DNA from: a virus
Taxonomy: Duplodnaviria; Caudoviricetes
DNA length: 38,349 nucleotides
Virus record (IMG/VR): IMGVR_UViG_3300032373_000048
Location: 1 to 38,349 of that record
Direction: 5' to 3' (one strand)
The position numbers and the translations under genes are program-made. How positions within the stretch are numbered: the first letter of the stretch is position 1; every line of letters begins with the position of its first letter. Positions 3,846 through 37,293 of the stretch are shown one piece after another. Under the pieces are notes generated by a model. That model did not search any database, had not been told where the DNA came from, and saw nothing but the letters and a program-made list of their open reading frames with translations.

Positions 3846-4831
3846 GTCTCACCTGTCGGCGCGTCGGCCTTCGCGTAATCCAAAGCCTCATCCAGACCAT
3901 TGATGATATTCTGTCCCGGTGTCTCTGTAGGGGCGGCGGAGAGCATGGCACTGTAGCCTTCCACTATGTCCCAAGCGAACAGGGCTGCGCGCTCTGTGTC
4001 GGTGTGCTTCGTCAGCGCAAAAGCGTTAGCCGCCAGTATCATCCCCGCTGTAAGGTTACGCGGAACCATCACCATGTCGTCATGTTTGCCGCTGTAACAT
4101 AGCTCGGAAGTATGTTCGGTTTTCGGCGTTTCGGTAACATGGGTAGGCTCACTTACGGCGCTATCTGATGCACAAGGCTCCAAGGCTTCACGGATTGCGG
4201 CTAGGCGGTCCTCCTGAGAAGAGATGCCTTTAGAACCGAGGGCGACATTGATTTCATCAAGCCATTGTTGGTATTGGTCTACCTGTTCTTCGCGCTCTGC
4301 CAGTCCTATACCAGTGTCCGGCTCCAAGGCTTCACGGATTGCCGCATCATAGTGGGCCTGTGCTGCGGTTTTGGCGGCTTCTAGGGTAGGGTGATATTCC
4401 GTCGCTCCGGTATGGAACGGCGTGAGCCAGAACGGGCGATCGTCTTTGCTCATGAGGTTTATCTCGTAAAAGAAGGCCGCGGTAGCGTGTACGGTGTAAC
4501 AATCGCCCGCCCCGTCCTGCACCCACTCCAACGCCTTAACCTTCACGGCTGGTTGGATAAGAGCAAGGATGGCGTCGGTGGCTTCGTTTAGGGCTTTTTC
4601 GCGAGTTCCAGCTAAAGGGGCATGGGGAGCATCCATTGCATCGCTGATGATGAATGCAACCCGATCCGCCAACCAACTGTCACGTAAAGATTCTCTATCA
4701 ACGGTCTGACGGTCCAGCATGTCGGCGTAGGCTCGAAGGGTGGCTGGTATTTCATCCTTGTGGTGTGGTAGGCTGTTCTCAATTTGATGCGCGACCATAC
4801 GCGCTTCTTCTGGTGTCATTGGTTCAGTCAT
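3842..4831 (-). CDS. Mosaic multi-module early protein
   Basis: Start MTEPMT after GGAG RBS; segments VKALEW..., TLEAAK.AAQAHY, MVMVPR.LT..M...Y.AML.AAP typical of phage early proteins; internal AAIREALEP duplication. Confidence 0.7.
   Translation of the reverse strand: MTEPMTPEEARMVAHQIENSLPHHKDEIPATLRAYADMLDRQTVDRESLRDSWLADRVAFIISDAMDAPHAPLAGTREKALNEATDAILALIQPAVKVKALEWVQDGAGDCYTVHATAAFFYEINLMSKDDRPFWLTPFHTGATEYHPTLEAAKTAAQAHYDAAIREALEPDTGIGLAEREEQVDQYQQWLDEINVALGSKGISSQEDRLAAIREALEPCASDSAVSEPTHVTETPKTEHTSELCYSGKHDDMVMVPRNLTAGMILAANAFALTKHTDTERAALFAWDIVEGYSAMLSAAPTETPGQNIINGLDEALDYAKADAPTGET
4176..4342. repeat. 23-bp exact direct repeat (4176-4198 and 4320-4342)
   Basis: ggctccaaggcttcacggattgc twice, 144 bp apart and in frame. 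Confidence 0.9.
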
Positions 4832-5015
4832 TGGGTTTACTCCTGCGAAGTGCGAGCCGTGAATTACGGAACCGCCGCTCAAGGTCGGAGTGTTGCTCAA
4901 GCAGATCACGCACAATGGCGATCAGGTCTGTGATGTTTTGCGAGTTTGTTTTCCCGCCCGCGTCAATGTGAGCCTCAATCTGGTCTATGTGCTGATGTGT
5001 TTCGTTCGGCGTCAT
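4824..5015 (-). CDS. Hypothetical protein
   Basis: GGAGG RBS before MTPNETHQ; overlaps neighbours. Confidence 0.6.
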   Translation of the reverse strand: MTPNETHQHIDQIEAHIDAGGKTNSQNITDLIAIVRDLLEQHSDLERRFRNSRLALRRSKPND

Positions 5016-8540: not shown

Positions 8541-8803
8541 CGCACCAGCTCCCTCTTGCTGCGCGAAGATACCAACGCGGCATCGCTGTTTACGCGGTCG
8601 ATACGGTCAAGCGCGGCGCGAAGGTCGCGGTATTGTTCTTCGGTGAACTCGACCACTTCGCCGCCCTCATCGCTGGCAATCGTAAGGCTCCAGCCACCAT
8701 CGGGGTAGCGGACCGCCTCAAGCGGCTCTGTGCTGTCCTGCGCGCGGTCCAGAAACAGAAGCGCCTGATAAACCGCGTCCCGTTGTGAGTATGTGAAAGT
8801 CAT
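8537..8803 (-). CDS. Hypothetical acidic protein
   Basis: GGGAGA RBS before MTFTYSQ; the Arg-rich extension in the ORF track comes from the repeat. Confidence 0.65.
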   Translation of the reverse strand: MTFTYSQRDAVYQALLFLDRAQDSTEPLEAVRYPDGGWSLTIASDEGGEVVEFTEEQYRDLRAALDRIDRVNSDAALVSSRSKRELVR

Positions 8804-8814
8804 GTTTGTCTCCC

Positions 8815-9099
8815 TTATCCGCTGCCGCTGCCGCTGCCGCTGCCGTAGCCGTCGCCGTAGCCGCTGCCGTCGCCGTTGCCGTAGCCGTCGCCGTTGCCGT
8901 TGCCGCTGCCGCTGCCGTAGCCGTCGCCGTAGCCGTCGCCGTTGCCGTTGCCGATGCCGTAGCCGATGCCGCTGCCGCTGCCGCTGCCGCTGCCGTTGCC
9001 GTTGCCGTAGCCGTTGCCGCTGCCGTAGCCGTAGCCGCTGCCGTCGCCGTCGCCGTCGCCGTTGCCGTAGCCGTCGCAGAGAATCCAAAGATTAGGCAT
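8815..9099 (-). CDS. 94-aa glycine-rich (X-Gly)43 repeat protein
   Basis: ATG overlaps the upstream stop (ATGCCTAA); MPNLWILC then DGYGNGDG...SGSG. Confidence 0.75.
   Translation of the reverse strand: MPNLWILCDGYGNGDGDGDGSGYGYGSGNGYGNGNGSGSGSGSGIGYGIGNGNGDGYGDGYGSGSGNGNGDGYGNGDGSGYGDGYGSGSGSGSG
8818..9075. repeat. Hexanucleotide tandem repeat, 43 units of NNC-GGC on the minus strand
   Basis: Only AAC, TAC, GAC, AGC and ATC alternate with GGC (last Gly is GGA). Confidence 0.95.
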
Positions 9100-9472
9100 T
9101 GCGTGGCTCAAATGTCTTGGCTGCGACCGTGCTAGCCGGAATGATCTCAATAGCCTGAGAAAGTTCGACCAATGGAACCCGCGCCGAGATGCGGCTCTGC
9201 TTGCCAACACCCTTTGTGGCGACCTCTGAAAGCGTGAAGGCTTCGGTCCATTTCCAGAGGCGGACCGAAGCTTCAAGAAGAACATTGGTGCCATTCTTGG
9301 CAATGACGGTCCCGATATGGACACCCGCAGAATAGGTGCGAACAACGCAAAGCTGACCAACGACGGGCGAGTCTTCGGTTTCAACGCTGACCTTGCGCGC
9401 TTCGATTTTTTGCCCCGTGGCGCGCTCTACCAGAGCAATGAGTGTTTCGTTTGAGATTTCAGTCTTGGACAT
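9092..9472 (-). CDS. DUF6948-like phage protein (probable Sm/SH3-like beta barrel)
   Basis: VGQLCVVRTYSAGVHIG...RLWKW...TLSEVATKGV...AIEIIP; AGGAG RBS. Confidence 0.75.
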   Translation of the reverse strand: MSKTEISNETLIALVERATGQKIEARKVSVETEDSPVVGQLCVVRTYSAGVHIGTVIAKNGTNVLLEASVRLWKWTEAFTLSEVATKGVGKQSRISARVPLVELSQAIEIIPASTVAAKTFEPRNA

Positions 9473-11298: not shown

Positions 11299-11697
11299 AT
11301 GGCAAGACATGACAACGAAACAAATTGGGACGAGAGCCGCATTGAAACGCTGCGCGAACTGAAGGCGTCGGGATACACACATGACGAAATTGCGAGGGTG
11401 ATGGAGTTGACGCGCGGTGCTGTCTCTGGCGGGTCGCGTAGGTTCTGCAAAGACATTCCTATCAAGCAAGGTGGGAAGCGCGGAAGCAGAAACAAGCCTG
11501 CCAATCACCTAAGCCGCTTTGGTGCTGAAAAGCTGGCACACAGCATCGAAACGTATTGGGCAGATCAGGGTTATTCGGTGCGGTGTTCTGTGGTGAAGAC
11601 GGACGCCAAGGCTGACGAGAATGATTCAACCCTGATTTATGCTGTCAAAACGGACATGGTAAACGGCCTGCCCCGTGACTATCGGGTGGCGTCATGA
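11299..11697 (+). CDS. Protein with GcrA-like N-terminal HTH
   Basis: WDESRIETLREL...G.T..EIA..M..TRGAV.G..RR. Confidence 0.7.
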   Translation: MARHDNETNWDESRIETLRELKASGYTHDEIARVMELTRGAVSGGSRRFCKDIPIKQGGKRGSRNKPANHLSRFGAEKLAHSIETYWADQGYSVRCSVVKTDAKADENDSTLIYAVKTDMVNGLPRDYRVAS

Positions 11698-12008
11698 TCA
11701 TCGCTTATCGGTTTGATTGCTCTGTGGATGCGACATATGGCGCTTTGAGCGTTTCACTTGTCCGTAAGCCGAAACTGAGCGACCTGTTGCAAGACGCCTG
11801 CGCGGATCATGGGGTGAGCATTTACGATGCCAAAAGCCCGCTTCGCCTGAAAGAATTGTCCGAAACGCGCCACGATTTCTTTCATCGCGCGCACCAGGCC
11901 GGGAATTGGTCGCTAACGCAGATTGCGCGAGCCGCAGGGCGCACAGACCACACAACCGTCATTCACGGCATTAAGGCCCACCAGAAGCGCATGGGGGCCA
12001 GCCAATGA
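11694..12008 (+). CDS. DnaA C-terminal-like HTH protein
   Basis: SP.R...L...R......SLTQIAR..GRTDHTTVIHGIK. Confidence 0.85.
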   Translation: MIIAYRFDCSVDATYGALSVSLVRKPKLSDLLQDACADHGVSIYDAKSPLRLKELSETRHDFFHRAHQAGNWSLTQIARAAGRTDHTTVIHGIKAHQKRMGASQ

Positions 12009-21896: not shown

Positions 21897-22607
21897 ATGA
21901 AGATCGCCCTGCTGACACCTTCCCGTGACGGGAGGGCGCATCTTGATCACTCAGAGGCGGTCGCGGCAACACGTATAGAAGCGTTGCGCCGTGGCCGTCC
22001 TTTGATCCGCCTGATTGGCAAAGGCTCGGCAAACCTGCCGCGCAATCGCAATCTGTTGGCGGCTGAAGCCCTTGCACAAGGGGCTGACATTCTTTTGTGG
22101 GTTGATTGTGACATTGCATTCAATCCGGCTGATGTGTTCCGGCTGGCTGATCTGGCACAGAAACACGGCGTTGTCGCGGCGCTACCCCAAGCGCGAACAC
22201 ATGATTACGGCGAACAGGCCCGCATTGCCGGGGTGCTTGTGAACGCTGACAAGAACGATGATGGGCTGATTGAGGCCAAGGCGCTGCCAACGGCATTCAT
22301 GGCGGTGCGCGCTGATGTTTTCCAGACCCTGATTGATGAAGGTAGGGCGAAAGAATTTGTCTGTCCTGCTGCCCCCCATTTGACGGTGTTTAACTGGTTT
22401 TTCTACGAATTGCGTCCTTGCGATGAGCAACCGGGCAAGCTGCAAGACGACGCTGAGGATTATTATTTTTGCCGGAAATGGAGTGAGGTTGGGGGCAAGC
22501 TGTGGGCTGTCCCTGATATGCGCCTTGCTCATTACGAGGGCTTGGTCAGGCATTCGCTTTGCCTTGAAGATGTGATTGGAGCGCAAGATGGCGGCGACGA
22601 AGGCTGA
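21897..22607 (+). CDS. GT-A fold glycosyltransferase-like protein
   Basis: KIALLTP, RNRNLLA, LLWVDCD (DxD), AFMAVRADVF, EDYYFCRKW...GG..W......L.H. Confidence 0.8.
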   Translation: MKIALLTPSRDGRAHLDHSEAVAATRIEALRRGRPLIRLIGKGSANLPRNRNLLAAEALAQGADILLWVDCDIAFNPADVFRLADLAQKHGVVAALPQARTHDYGEQARIAGVLVNADKNDDGLIEAKALPTAFMAVRADVFQTLIDEGRAKEFVCPAAPHLTVFNWFFYELRPCDEQPGKLQDDAEDYYFCRKWSEVGGKLWAVPDMRLAHYEGLVRHSLCLEDVIGAQDGGDEG

Positions 22608-33654: not shown

Positions 33655-34068
33655 ATGACCGACACCCTACGATTTCGACACTGGCGCGATGTTCGCCCTG
33701 ACCAATGGCCTCTGACATTCTTCTCACCAGAGGAAGTGTCAGACAGTCGTGACGGGTCAATCGTTCTGCACAAGTCGTTTGGGCTTCGCCTGGACGAAAT
33801 GCGCCGTGACTTCGGCTCTCCGATCCGCGTCAATTCTTGGTATCGCACGCCGGAACATGACCGTTCGATTGGCGGTAAGGGCAATCATTCGGGCGGCTGG
33901 GCGGCTGACATCGCACCGGCAAACGGTGATTGGTACGGGCTTATCGCTCTGGCCTTTGAGTTCCGCTTCCTTGGTGTTGGCGTGAATAAACCCTCTTTCA
34001 TTCACCTTGACGATAATCACGACTATGAGCGGTCGGGTAAGCGTCCAGCTTTTTGGCAGTATTCATAA
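33655..34068 (+). CDS. Endolysin, peptidase M15 family Zn peptidase
   Basis: LD.MR..FG.PI.VNS.YR...H...IGG..NH..G.AADI, FIHLD. Confidence 0.9.
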   Translation: MTDTLRFRHWRDVRPDQWPLTFFSPEEVSDSRDGSIVLHKSFGLRLDEMRRDFGSPIRVNSWYRTPEHDRSIGGKGNHSGGWAADIAPANGDWYGLIALAFEFRFLGVGVNKPSFIHLDDNHDYERSGKRPAFWQYS

Positions 34069-34586
34069 TGCGCCCCGCGACACTCGCCGCCATCAACAAT
34101 GCGTCTCTGGTCGGTTTTGCAGAGGTCGCCCGCGACGGGACATTTATTTGCGTCAATGAGACGTTTGCGGCGCTAGTGGAGTTCAGCCGCTTTGAGATGG
34201 AAGGTTTGATGACCTTCCAGAAAATCACACACCGAGCGGACTTGGATGCTGATGTCGGGCAGTCCGCACAAGTCGCGGCGGGCGAAATCCCTGGCTACAC
34301 AATCAACAAGAGATACATCACAAAGCTTGACAATATCGTGTGGGTTAAGCTGCGCGTTGTCGGCGTCTTTGATGGTGAAACCTTCTCGCACTTTGCAGTC
34401 CAAGCAAAACCCGTGATGCGGTTCCAATCGCCGGGTGTCTCGCCTGACGCCGTGCGTCCGATTTCGTTTAAACCTTTCACATGGCTCAAGGCGAACTGGC
34501 AGATATTCACGGCTGGCACACTGGCTTGCGGAATGATTATCGCTGAAGTCATCCGGCAGATTTCTCGCGGTGGCCCTCATGGATAA
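34068..34586 (+). CDS. PAS-domain protein with C-terminal transmembrane helix
   Basis: GFAEVARDGTFICVNETFAALV.FS..E...MTFQKITH.ADL..D.......GEI.GY...KRYI.K....VWV.L.V matches the PAS/PAC pattern; WQIFTAGTLACGMIIAEVI TM; TAATG overlap with the endolysin. Confidence 0.85.
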   Translation: MRPATLAAINNASLVGFAEVARDGTFICVNETFAALVEFSRFEMEGLMTFQKITHRADLDADVGQSAQVAAGEIPGYTINKRYITKLDNIVWVKLRVVGVFDGETFSHFAVQAKPVMRFQSPGVSPDAVRPISFKPFTWLKANWQIFTAGTLACGMIIAEVIRQISRGGPHG

Positions 34587-34884
34587 CAGTGACCGTTTCC
34601 CCCTTGATATTCCAGAACTGCAACCACACAAGCGAGATGTGTTCTGGCTTCGCATGATAATTATAGGCGCGGCTGCTGCGATGTTTATGATCCACACGCT
34701 TGGCCTTCTCTACCACATACAGGGGCAAGTCGCAGCGATGACCTACGCCCCCGGTAATTGGAGCCGAATAGATCACGCCAACTGGTGCGCGCGGGCGGAG
34801 CGGGACAATCCCGGCTTTGAATGCCCGACACCGTACACTGACGAGATGATGGGAGGGGTCGCCCGTGCGCCAATCGACTACTGA
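34579..34884 (+). CDS. Single-TM protein with C-terminal two-Cys domain
   Basis: TM FWLRMIIIGAAAAMFMIHTLGLL; WC..........FEC; overlaps the PAS gene. Confidence 0.65.
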   Translation: MDNSDRFPLDIPELQPHKRDVFWLRMIIIGAAAAMFMIHTLGLLYHIQGQVAAMTYAPGNWSRIDHANWCARAERDNPGFECPTPYTDEMMGGVARAPIDY

Positions 34885-35095
34885 ACAACACTGGTATTGG
34901 CGTCTGCCGCGTCCAACAATGATGTGGTCAGCGGTCGCCTTGCCGTTTCTGGCTGTCACTGTAAACGCGACATGGCCGGTTGTATTATTAGCTGTTGGCT
35001 ACCCAACTTTGCTTTATTTCATGCGTGGTGGTATTGATAAAGGCTGGATAGAGCGAGTTGTTTCAATCTGGAAAGGCCGGAGCAATGCAGCATAG
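34865..35095 (+). CDS. Putative holin (resembles GTA 3TM-holin family)
   Basis: GGAGG RBS, W...RP.MMW, two hydrophobic segments, Y..R...DK, basic C-terminus. Confidence 0.6.
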   Translation: MRQSTTEQHWYWRLPRPTMMWSAVALPFLAVTVNATWPVVLLAVGYPTLLYFMRGGIDKGWIERVVSIWKGRSNAA

Positions 35096-35099
35096 GACC

Positions 35100-35178
35100 A
35101 GAAACAAGCGAGCCTCGGCTGGGCGGCAACCCAAGGCCGAGGCTCTCACGACCATCCCCTCATCAAAAGGAAATCGCA
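35100..35178 (-). ncRNA. Predicted antisense small RNA in the holin-spanin gap
   Basis: Minus-strand TTGACT-N18-TATGTT (35213-35184) and strong hairpin 35110-35145 followed by gcttgtttct. Confidence 0.45.
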
Positions 35179-35218
35179 TGGACAACATACATCGCAAGCG
35201 GAGAGAAAGTCAAGAACG

Positions 35219-35629
35219 ATGCTGAACCTCCTATCTAGCCTGTGGGGCAAAGTCCTCATCATTGCGGCGGGGAGCGCATTTGCCCTAGCGGGCGCATTTT
35301 TTCTTCTGTTTCTTATGGCTCAGGGAGAGGCGTCAAGGGAACGCGCGGGGCGCGTCCTTGCAGAAGCCGCCAACGAGGCCAATCAAAACACAATCAAACT
35401 CATGCAGGACCATGCGGCGCGTGAGGCCATCATTCTGCGAAGACTGGACGAGCTACAAGCCGGGATCGCTCAAAATGCACAAGAACGGCGCGCTCAACTG
35501 GAACAACTAGCGAGAGACAACCCCAATGTTCAAGACGACCTTGATTATCGCTTCAGCCTTGATCTTGTCTGCCTGCGGGACGCCCAGAACGGTGTTACAA
35601 ACCCAGATTGCCCAACTGAAGATCAGTGA
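35219..35629 (+). CDS. Rz-like i-spanin
   Basis: N-terminal TM, long coiled coil, C-terminal Cys; overlapped by the lipoprotein gene. Confidence 0.8.
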   Translation: MLNLLSSLWGKVLIIAAGSAFALAGAFFLLFLMAQGEASRERAGRVLAEAANEANQNTIKLMQDHAAREAIILRRLDELQAGIAQNAQERRAQLEQLARDNPNVQDDLDYRFSLDLVCLRDAQNGVTNPDCPTEDQ

Positions 35630-35825
35630 GGCTCTATTGATAGCCTGTCGTCGCCCTGAAGGGCTCGTCAGCGAGCGCGGGACCGAAGAAGCATTCCACA
35701 ACTCTGACCAGTGGCGAACGGCCTTTGACAGCTGTTCTGCGCGACATGGCGAATTAGCGAATGCGGTGCGCTCGGCTCAAGAGACGGATCAGGGAGGCGG
35801 GAATGGCGCAGCCGATAACGATTAG
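35526..35825 (+). CDS. Rz1-like o-spanin lipoprotein (allele B)
   Basis: Lipobox LSAC; 104-nt overlap with the i-spanin. Confidence 0.8.
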   Translation: MFKTTLIIASALILSACGTPRTVLQTQIAQLKISEALLIACRRPEGLVSERGTEEAFHNSDQWRTAFDSCSARHGELANAVRSAQETDQGGGNGAADND

Positions 35826-36048
35826 CCTTGATTGGAAATGGCTTGTTGGCTTGGCGGCGGGCTTCTCGACCATAGCAGGCGGGGCCACAACCGGCGTCCT
35901 TATGCTCGACCGGCATATTGAGAGGGTCCACAATCGCATCGAATCGCGGGCCACGCTTGAGGCGCTTTGTTCCAAGGGCGAAACAGGCGATGAAGATTTG
36001 GACGCGGCACGAAGTCAGATGATTTCCGCGCTTGGGGGTTGCCCTTAA
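35803..36048 (+). CDS. Single-TM lysis-region membrane protein (allele B)
   Basis: Nearly identical protein to 277-522 despite many synonymous changes. Confidence 0.75.
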   Translation: MAQPITISLDWKWLVGLAAGFSTIAGGATTGVLMLDRHIERVHNRIESRATLEALCSKGETGDEDLDAARSQMISALGGCP

Positions 36049-37293
36049 ATGGTTACGCGCCCCTTCACGCCAGAGCAAATACAAGAAACATACGATGCTT
36101 ATGTGAAGGCGGGCGGAAGTGTCCGCGAGATGGCGAATCTCTTGGGTATGGCCCGGTCCAGCGTCCGCAATCGCCTCGACAAGATGGGGATTGACGAAGC
36201 CGATATTGAAATCCTTGAAGCCAATGTCAAACTCGCCAAAGCCAAGCAGAAGGGGCAAGACCTTAACCGCATTGAACGCAAGGCGTTTCGCGAACATGCC
36301 AGAATTGAAAACGCGGTCGCGGGATATGCGGAGCGGTTATGCGAATTACTGGAAAAACACGGCCTTCCATCGACTGACGGCCTGCCTCCGATTGACGCCA
36401 CGAGCGATGCGGTCGGCATTCTTCATCTAACAGACATTCATTTCAACGAAGTGGTCCGGCTGGCACAGAATGAATACGATTTCGAGATAGCGGGAAAGCG
36501 CCTGCGCAAATTGGTCCTAGAGGCCGCTTTAGTCTGGAAGGCCAAGAGTATCGGAAGTGTGCTTGTGGCTATCACTGGCGATCTGATGAACTCTGACAGG
36601 CGCTTGGATGAATTGCTTGCCAACCAGGATAACCGCGCACGCGCTACGATGGGCGCAGTGGACATTCTCAAGCAGCTTATTGACGATCTGAGTTGTCAAG
36701 GATTCCTTGTCACCTGTGCAGACGTGAACGGCAATGAAGGCCGGGTGGGAAAAGACATTGGCTGGGTGGCAAAGGTCGCCTCTGACAATTATGATGAGAC
36801 GATCTGCCGGATGCTCGAATATCTCTATCGGGACCACGGCGGGGTGACTTGGGTAGAGAATGACGACGCGACCGAATGCGTTGTGGAAGTCGCTGGGCAG
36901 AATATTCTTCTGATCCACGGCCACCAACTCGACAAGAACATGGAATCCGGCGTCGGCAAGCTGGTCAGTAAATACGCCAAGCGGGGCGTCATTATCCGCT
37001 ACACACTCTCAGGCCACATTCATTCGGCCTATATGAATGAGAATTTCGCCCGTTCCGGTTCGCCGGTAGGGGATAACGCATATTCAGACAAGGCCCTTAA
37101 TCTGACAGGGCGCGCATCCGGTGCATACTACACCGTAGAGCCTGACGGGTCCGTTCATGCGTCAATGGTAGACACGCAGAACGTAGACCACATCGAAGGC
37201 TATACCCCCCTCAAAGAGTATCAGGCATCTTGCCCTAAATCAGCCATCAAGGCGCAAGGCCAAGGCGTCACGATTTTCCAAGTGGTCGTCTAG
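36049..37293 (+). CDS. Calcineurin-like metallophosphoesterase with N-terminal HTH and coiled coil (allele B)
   Basis: DIH, GDLMN, GNEG, HGH, GHIH motifs. Confidence 0.85.
   Translation: MVTRPFTPEQIQETYDAYVKAGGSVREMANLLGMARSSVRNRLDKMGIDEADIEILEANVKLAKAKQKGQDLNRIERKAFREHARIENAVAGYAERLCELLEKHGLPSTDGLPPIDATSDAVGILHLTDIHFNEVVRLAQNEYDFEIAGKRLRKLVLEAALVWKAKSIGSVLVAITGDLMNSDRRLDELLANQDNRARATMGAVDILKQLIDDLSCQGFLVTCADVNGNEGRVGKDIGWVAKVASDNYDETICRMLEYLYRDHGGVTWVENDDATECVVEVAGQNILLIHGHQLDKNMESGVGKLVSKYAKRGVIIRYTLSGHIHSAYMNENFARSGSPVGDNAYSDKALNLTGRASGAYYTVEPDGSVHASMVDTQNVDHIEGYTPLKEYQASCPKSAIKAQGQGVTIFQVVV

Follow-up and report, generated by a model that had tools for sequence, protein, structure and literature searches.

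Between an endolysin gene and two spanin-like genes of an uncultured phage lies a gene of 172 codons, whose product is predicted to join a PAS domain to a single C-terminal membrane helix. The window, by which we mean the whole stretch of DNA that was analysed, is a 38,349-bp IMG/VR record that CheckV rates as 88% complete; a profile scan identified the phage as podovirus-type, with a P22-like portal and capsid. The features of the lysis region are as follows.

33655..34068, + strand: endolysin, peptidase M15_3, 137 aa (Pfam PF08291, E 2.6e-10; PHROG 894, E 2.3e-14)
34068..35218, no strand: exchangeable slot of 1151 bp, from endolysin stop to Rz start (comparison with the relative L002)
34068..34586, + strand: PAS domain, Pro-rich linker and single C-terminal membrane helix, 172 aa (structure, profiles, family alignments)
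34068..34418, + strand: PAS domain of S-box type, residues 1-117, nearest to those of E. coli DgcE/YegE (TIGR00229, NF007298)
34419..34496, + strand: flexible linker, then a short pre-membrane helix at residues 136-142 (model; block of lowest pLDDT, 57)
34497..34565, + strand: predicted membrane helix, residues 144-166, with a conserved Trp, 16 uncharged residues and AEVI (sequence, alignment, model)
34579..34884, + strand: partner, 101 aa, with one TM (26-44) and two conserved Cys in the C-terminal part (homologue in L006)
34865..35095, + strand: probable holin, 76 aa, hydrophobic at 20-52 (weak match to Pfam GTA_holin_3TM, E 0.086)
35108..35147, + strand: stable hairpin between the probable holin and Rz (-27.4 kcal/mol; without a U-tract and not among the listed terminators)
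35219..35629, + strand: Rz-like i-spanin (PHROG 89, E 3.8e-5)
35526..35825, + strand: Rz1-like o-spanin lipoprotein (PHROG 456, E 1.7e-7; Pfam LysC, E 1.5e-4)

Endolysin, PAS gene, partner and probable holin follow one another with overlaps of 1, 8 and 20 nt, and after them come the hairpin, Rz and Rz1. A sequence-only reading had described a 172-residue frame within a lysis cassette, beginning in the endolysin stop codon. Both points hold: the frame runs from 34068 to 34586, its ATG shares the letters TAATG with the endolysin stop, and the M15 endolysin and the Rz-like and Rz1-like genes flank it. No clear ribosome-binding site was seen upstream of the ATG at 34068, and a scan for promoters and terminators gave five sites of each kind, where 1.6 and 3.2 would be expected; none was informative. 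The product of 34865-35095 aligns loosely with genes from the same slot of records L003 and G001. After Rz1 there is a small gene with one TM and two Cys (35803-36048), which has no Pfam or PHROG match; by eye, a similar gene adjoins the G001 spanins on the opposite strand.

Positions 34037-34573 are present with 0 differences in a second sequencing run, and we reject an assembly artefact as a reading of the PAS locus. Four runs contain the region, all of them microbial-mat metagenomes. The two ends of the contig (1-526 and 35521-36052) carry versions of Rz1 and the small TM gene that are 86% identical, and behind each version lies a different phosphoesterase-like gene (523-1695 and 36049-37293). 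Run X1 contains both of these alleles, at depths of about 81 and 29, so that the genome is probably circular and was assembled into this record through a strain bubble. A GcrA-like gene (11299-11697; E 9.4e-4, under cut-off) suggests an alphaproteobacterial host, and is followed by a gene with a DnaA C-terminal HTH (11694-12008). A glycosyltransferase-like gene (21897-22607; Pfam Glycos_transf_2, E 0.001) lies within the head-gene block, and a low-complexity frame of Gly-Tyr-Gly-Asn/Asp/Ser repeats on the minus strand (8793-9135) adjoins a DUF6948 gene.

By profile and predicted structure, the product of 34068-34586 is a true PAS-domain protein. It scores 30.5 bits against TIGR00229 (sensory_box), for which the curated cut-off is 22.9, and its best curated match is to the DgcE PAS domains (NF007298, E 7.4e-17, residues 13-104), a profile that all 48 aligned family members also match. 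The Pfam models PAS_9, PAS and PAS_3 match weakly (E 0.011-0.019, under cut-off). The AlphaFold model has a pLDDT of 91 and contains a five-stranded sheet with flanking helices; a VIA comparison with the solved PAS domain 3lyx aligned 117 residues (Z 18.0, rmsd 1.9 A). The Foldseek PDB rows shown were all PAS/LOV-type domains, and the ESM Atlas matches were all PAS. The claim of a complete PAS domain is thus upheld, and the Pfam and structure checks proposed with it came out under cut-off in Pfam and positive with TIGR00229 and the predicted structure. Four residues are invariant in the 48 members (N30, D58, K81 and Y83) and four more occur in 47 of them (T54, D62, T85 and K86). Structural neighbours of the model are tied across ligand classes, and no ligand is indicated.

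LOV photoreceptors carry the motif GxNCRFLQ, which holds the photoactive Cys. As the sequence-only reading had remarked, the motif is missing; it is absent both from the protein and from the family consensus, and we reject a LOV photoreceptor. That reading had also seen no kinase, GGDEF or HTH output. We agree for the frame itself, in which there is no effector domain and in which neither profiles nor the model reveal an HTH, setting it apart from PAS-HTH proteins of the VqmA type; a fragment of a kinase gene was likewise rejected as a reading of 34068-34586. The broader statement that no signalling gene occurs elsewhere in the record stands for the three families searched, Response_reg, HATPase_c and GGDEF (0 matches each).

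Behind the PAS domain, the model and hydropathy both support the linker and single C-terminal hydrophobic helix that had been read from the letters, the helix, whose hydrophobic part runs from residue 144 to about 162, being short and marginal (Kyte-Doolittle 1.5). We compared it with the tails of the family in alignment A3, which consists of 48 hand-picked members, mostly single-TM. These share a conserved Trp and often AEVI; the uncharged run has a median of 16 residues, and in 41 of the 48 at most 14 further residues follow the tail segment. Because basic residues are slightly commoner before the helix than after it (2.7 against 1.6 across the family), a cytoplasmic PAS domain, predicted as N-in, is weakly favoured. 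The pre-membrane helix has a mean hydrophobic moment of 0.43 in the family, against 0.31 for shuffled sequences; in the PAS protein itself the value is 0.24, and the helix is not clearly amphipathic.

The DIT motif is thought to couple PAS domains to a downstream helix (PMC3183031, partial text). It is present in 0 of the 48 family members, compared with 228 of 278 related bacterial domains from 146 long proteins. Between the last strand and the membrane Trp lie 20 to 41 aa, which include at least two Pro in 94% of the 48 members. A rigid mechanical path from the PAS domain to the membrane helix is therefore unlikely, since DIT is absent and the linker is variable, Pro-rich and the part with the lowest internal pLDDT. 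Loss of DIT is nevertheless compatible with sensing, because RsbP-type PAS domains lack the motif and retain signalling (PMC3183031, partial text).

These properties bear on the idea of a ligand-gated lysis switch, in which the PAS pocket would bind a cytoplasmic metabolite or cofactor and thereby release or block the holin. It would fit the intact fold and the polar residues that are invariant, or nearly so, in the 48 members, and two phage systems lend it some plausibility. VqmA of vibriophage VP882 is a phage-encoded PAS receptor tied to lysis outcome through control of the lysis-lysogeny decision (PMC8284805, partial text); it is, however, a soluble PAS-HTH transcription factor with no membrane anchor, whereas the present protein is anchored and has no HTH. 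In T4, the holin T joins an amphipathic helix, one TM and a globular regulatory domain, and with the antiholins RI and RIII as partners lysis is timed around this single-TM holin (PMC12162936, partial text). In that case, though, T forms the pore and its regulatory domain lies in the periplasm; profiles of T, RI and RIII did not match the PAS protein. The absent LOV motif, the lack of an indicated ligand, the missing DIT and the variable, Pro-rich linker all speak against such a switch, as does the fact that the conserved pattern is largely the general S-box motif; we consider it quite unlikely.

The PAS-tail protein belongs to a conserved family that is encountered mainly on phage contigs. 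A first search found three full-length homologues, 90, 78 and 63% identical, a profile search found three more with the tail, and a second search round brought 90 proteins. A hydrophobic segment near the C-terminus was present in 56 of the 91 proteins examined. In a tree of 57 PAS domains (112 columns), a branch with values of 100/96 separated 18 domains of long, bacterial-type proteins from the membrane-tailed ones, although this bacterial sample is small and many forks of the tree are open. Among the best 80 of 595 matches in bacterial genomes (13 of 64 parts), the PAS domain occurred only within long multi-domain frames, with 0 under 300 aa. The matches listed from a metagenome scan (31 of 64 parts) comprised the L006 contig and nine PAS-only matches. 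BFVD contains other PAS proteins of uncultured phages. Viral contigs searched with P0001 and alignment A1 gave nothing, a family for the PAS protein was not found in PHROGs, and tblastn of GenBank phages with P0001, P0159 and P0161 had no match, so that no cultured model phage was found.

The same PAS type also carries other tails, namely a TM followed by a C-terminal coiled coil, often in large T4-like phages (L010, L013, L021-L023, L028, L029 and L033), or a two-TM hairpin (L017, L025 and L027); none of these loci has a lysis match within 3 kb. In L030, a gene for a stand-alone ethylene-receptor-like membrane domain (4441-4950; Pfam ETR1_N, E 4.7e-15) stands directly before the PAS-family gene and after a tail gene.

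Comparison with relatives shows that the PAS gene occupies an exchangeable slot. DNA similarity to L002, the relative whose endolysin is 94% identical, stops at 34070 and restarts exactly at the Rz start at 35219. The L002 slot measures 786 bp, against 1151 bp here, and holds three unrelated genes, encoding a 62-aa coil protein with one TM, a 61-aa coil and a 147-aa multi-TM protein (L002:5411-6198), which lack a convincing profile match. In L003 the slot contains a single-TM coil gene and a two-TM gene. L004 and L005 have a two-TM holin-like gene and a protein of coil plus C-terminal TM, which shares the soluble-domain-plus-tail layout of the PAS protein with a coiled coil replacing PAS. Only small membrane and coiled-coil genes thus fill the slot in relatives L002-L005, and the PAS gene is found in 0 of 4 records with related endolysins (94, 72, 59 and 55% identical), all of them incomplete. 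Since the relative with the 94%-identical endolysin fills its slot with three unrelated genes, the PAS gene is optional.

Sequencing runs provide a view of the slot within the mats. Run X2 contains the PAS gene unchanged, plus a contig that joins 34070 to 35219, on which the short side is 34 letters and the intervening letters are not known. In run X3 the end of an L002 gene lies in front of Rz. Diverged alleles in X3 and X4 (75 differences in 484 bases and 63 in 350) retain the endolysin-PAS junction, and in X4 the loose end after the PAS stop resembles, by eye, the start of the partner. Because both kinds of junction occur in runs X2, X3 and X4, slot alleles with and without the PAS gene appear to coexist in mats.

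An optional gene with weak Pfam scores could be a bacterial sensor gene that was captured and survives as a neutral remnant. Yet the full-length, intact homologues at 90, 78, 63 and 47% identity keep both PAS and tail, as does the wider family at about 26-40%, and the best 80 bacterial matches noted above all lie in long multi-domain frames. Family-wide conservation largely refutes the remnant reading, which we regard as highly improbable.

The partner gene, which overlaps the PAS gene by 8 nt, co-travels with it. In L006, a 44% identical partner homologue comes directly after the PAS gene, again with an 8-nt overlap. P0243 is the only other partner homologue found; its longest contig has a length of 6462, equal to that of the PAS homologue P0002, which is an indirect link. 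Because the partner is absent from all five lysis-linked records of the wider family, it is specific to the PAS branch of 34068-34586. It had no match in Pfam or PHROGs; its structural model was poor (pLDDT 64, pTM 0.28) and its Atlas matches fell under the bar, and neither was used.

If the protein acts in lysis, its homologues might be expected beside lysis genes, as the sequence-only reading had proposed to check. After removal of duplicates there were 24 non-redundant viral loci. Six long PAS genes that are multi-domain or lack the tail (L016, L034, L073, L074, L076 and L079) were dropped, as were L030/L055 and L058, which are cut at contig ends; L031 was kept despite having no clear TM. 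Neighbours, with ORFs to about 450 aa, were scanned with PHROGs and Pfam; three loci had short flanks. Six of the 24 loci had a lysis-category match within 3 kb, against 2.8-3.6 expected from contig sizes (p 0.06-0.13), so that enrichment over all 24 was not significant; endolysin matches alone numbered four (p 0.31-0.49). In the single-TM, short-tailed subtype, which was defined after seeing the data, the count was 6 of 12, against 1.5-1.8 expected (p 0.002-0.004, under a null that ignores insertion hot spots), and endolysins alone gave 4 of 12 (p 0.05-0.09). The other subtypes had a lysis match within 3 kb at 0 of 12 loci (Fisher p 0.014, for this post hoc split).

The six loci are varied. 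L014 has an M15 peptidase at 1.7 kb from the PAS gene, L020 an amidase that overlaps it, plus spanins, L060 a lysozyme at 0.7 kb, and L053 a CHAP endolysin at 2.9 kb (3.9 kb in a sister contig); homologues therefore adjoin four endolysin classes. L008 and L019 have weak Rz-like spanin matches (E 0.007 and E 0.02). L019 also has a DUF5675 gene, a candidate endolysin. As the available part of PMC10671443 offers no support for DUF5675 in that role, this locus was counted by its weak spanin match. L018 and L077 look lysis-like by eye; they have no lysis profile match and were excluded from the 6 of 12. Calcineurin-like phosphoesterase genes often lie a few kb from the PAS gene (36049-37293 here; L009, L014, L023, L031, L053 and, by eye, L077).

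The linkage to lysis genes is partial: it is seen at 6 of 24 loci, or 6 of 12 in the short-tailed subtype drawn post hoc, and is missing at 18 of 24, including L006/G001, the closest homologue with known context (47% identical, with terminal repeats). In G001 the PAS-partner pair lies amid methylase and recombination genes, 5.8 kb from a spanin and 6.9 kb from an endolysin, and the genome carries a separate endolysin-holin-spanin cassette. In G002 more than 30 kb separate the PAS gene, which comes after the terminase, from the endolysin, and at other loci it stands by tail tube, baseplate or metabolic genes.

This distribution supports the main rival view of the protein, as a passenger or decoy, the decoy having also been suggested in the sequence-only reading. 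The tethered PAS domain would pair with the PAS domain of a host kinase or diguanylate cyclase, and the lysis slot would merely be a convenient late site, in keeping with the 18 of 24 loci with no lysis match within 3 kb and with the G001 pair outside its cassette. PAS domains of this type are common in host kinases and cyclases (25,026 matches), and the GcrA-like gene, under cut-off as it is, suggests an alphaproteobacterial host. In Caulobacter, the lone PAS protein MopJ, which has no output domain, works by partner binding and binds the DivJ kinase (PMC4432633, partial text). MopJ is a chromosomal cell-cycle factor for which neither a membrane tail nor a tie to lysis is known, whereas the protein described here is phage-encoded, membrane-tailed and located in a lysis cassette. 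A decoy fits less well with the tight coupling inside the cassette, with recurrence beside four endolysin classes, and with the split of the phage domains from the 18 sampled bacterial ones (100/96); nor would a host-specific mimic obviously need conserved residues of its own, such as T85 and K86. We judge this explanation somewhat unlikely.

Could the PAS protein itself be the holin? It is a small membrane protein encoded with an endolysin, and the pre-membrane helix and single TM of the model, together with the family mean moment, recall a class III-like holin, which has a short helix and one TM; PAS would then serve as its regulatory domain in the cytoplasm. Its own moment is low, however, and its TM short and marginal; no holin family profile in Pfam or PHROGs matched it at E 0.1, a separate holin candidate (34865-35095) lies downstream, relatives do without the gene, and many homologues are far from endolysins. 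This reading is very unlikely.

Parallels also come from membrane proteins that assist a holin. Single-TM lysis regulators act with a two-TM holin-like protein (PMC13056207; bioRxiv 10.64898/2026.08.27.747656; partial texts), and LysF1b of Girr and NormanBulbieJr and LysA2b of D29, which like the PAS protein have one TM, are needed with a small two-TM protein for timed lysis. These proteins differ in having an N-terminal TM, an N-out, C-in topology, no PAS domain and a mycobacterial host; the TM of the PAS protein is C-terminal and its topology is predicted as N-in. XhlA of Bacillus PBSX has a soluble N-terminal domain and a C-terminal TM. This membrane protein is predicted to act together with the holin XhlB (PMC5589764, partial text) and has a coiled coil where our protein has PAS, and the PAS protein has no XhlA profile match; the coil-plus-TM slot protein of L004/L005 has a weak PHROG hemolysin match (E 0.2). 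Among the papers listed in searches of full-text literature, mostly non-subscription, none dealt with a PAS protein from the lysis cassette of a phage; the sequence-only reading, too, knew of no characterised PAS-regulated lysis system.

Weighing this evidence, we favour, with a probability of about 0.45, an accessory, non-pore lysis-timing membrane protein whose PAS domain would oligomerise and so cluster its helix with the partner and the holin. Over three readings combined, a role in lysis is somewhat more probable than not. In the accessory model, translational coupling to the endolysin would lead to late synthesis of the protein, with its PAS domain in the cytoplasm. The domain would self-associate, like the PAS region of DgcE, its closest named relative. 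Self-association would gather the membrane helix, the partner and the small holin into clusters, and clustering would shift the moment at which the holin triggers. Any input from a ligand or the host would act through the oligomer state, rather than by a piston through the linker.

By analogy, oligomerisation would be the likeliest job of the PAS domain here, because DIT is lost, the linker is flexible and the DgcE PAS region dimerises. The authors of the DgcE study took that region to pass a signal on, not to perceive one (PMC6510439, partial text). In DgcE/YegE and related kinases and cyclases, DIT and a helix lead to the GGDEF or kinase output, whereas here a flexible linker leads to a membrane tail. 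The TAATG coupling to the endolysin and the 8-nt and 20-nt overlaps leading to the partner and holin argue for the accessory role, as do the kinds of gene that fill the slot in relatives, the lysis genes near short-tailed homologues and the endolysin-PAS junction kept by diverged alleles. Against it count the lack of significant enrichment over all 24 loci, the absence of the partner from the five lysis-linked records searched, and a general tendency of late operons to take up optional genes at their ends. The closest homologue, L006/G001, argues against it by keeping the pair outside the lysis cassette, but distance is compatible with a lysis role, since the single-TM regulator of D29, LysA2b, is encoded away from the endolysin (bioRxiv 10.64898/2026.08.27.747656, partial text).

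The sequence-only reading had gone further, to a sensor-gated holin or antiholin. In its favour are the PAS fold with its membrane tail, the missing output domain, the place in the cassette and the recurrence of homologues beside different endolysin classes; the optional gene, the 18 of 24 unlinked loci and the loss of DIT tell against it. Direct sensing by the PAS protein is possible, though not the reading that we favour. In its strongest form, a widespread family would tether a cytoplasmic sensor beside the holin, and a host metabolite or redox signal would set the moment of lysis directly and post-translationally, which we hold to be unlikely.

Overall, this is a real phage PAS-membrane protein, conserved and so far unstudied, encoded in a swappable holin slot. 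Should it be a decoy for host kinases or cyclases, it would still represent an unstudied phage family. Lysis timing sets burst size, and to our knowledge the characterised inputs to it (holin sequence, membrane energy, and superinfection in lysis inhibition) include no cytoplasmic sensor domain on a membrane protein of the cassette. The question can be put to the test at this locus, where the slot spans about 1.2 kb with exact boundaries and a natural allele free of the sensor is flanked by endolysin and Rz genes that are almost identical. If the protein were a tethered sensor, lysis timing would be read from within the cell, and the holin slot would carry the sensor as a plug-in allele, coexisting with alleles that lack it in one and the same phage population of microbial mats.
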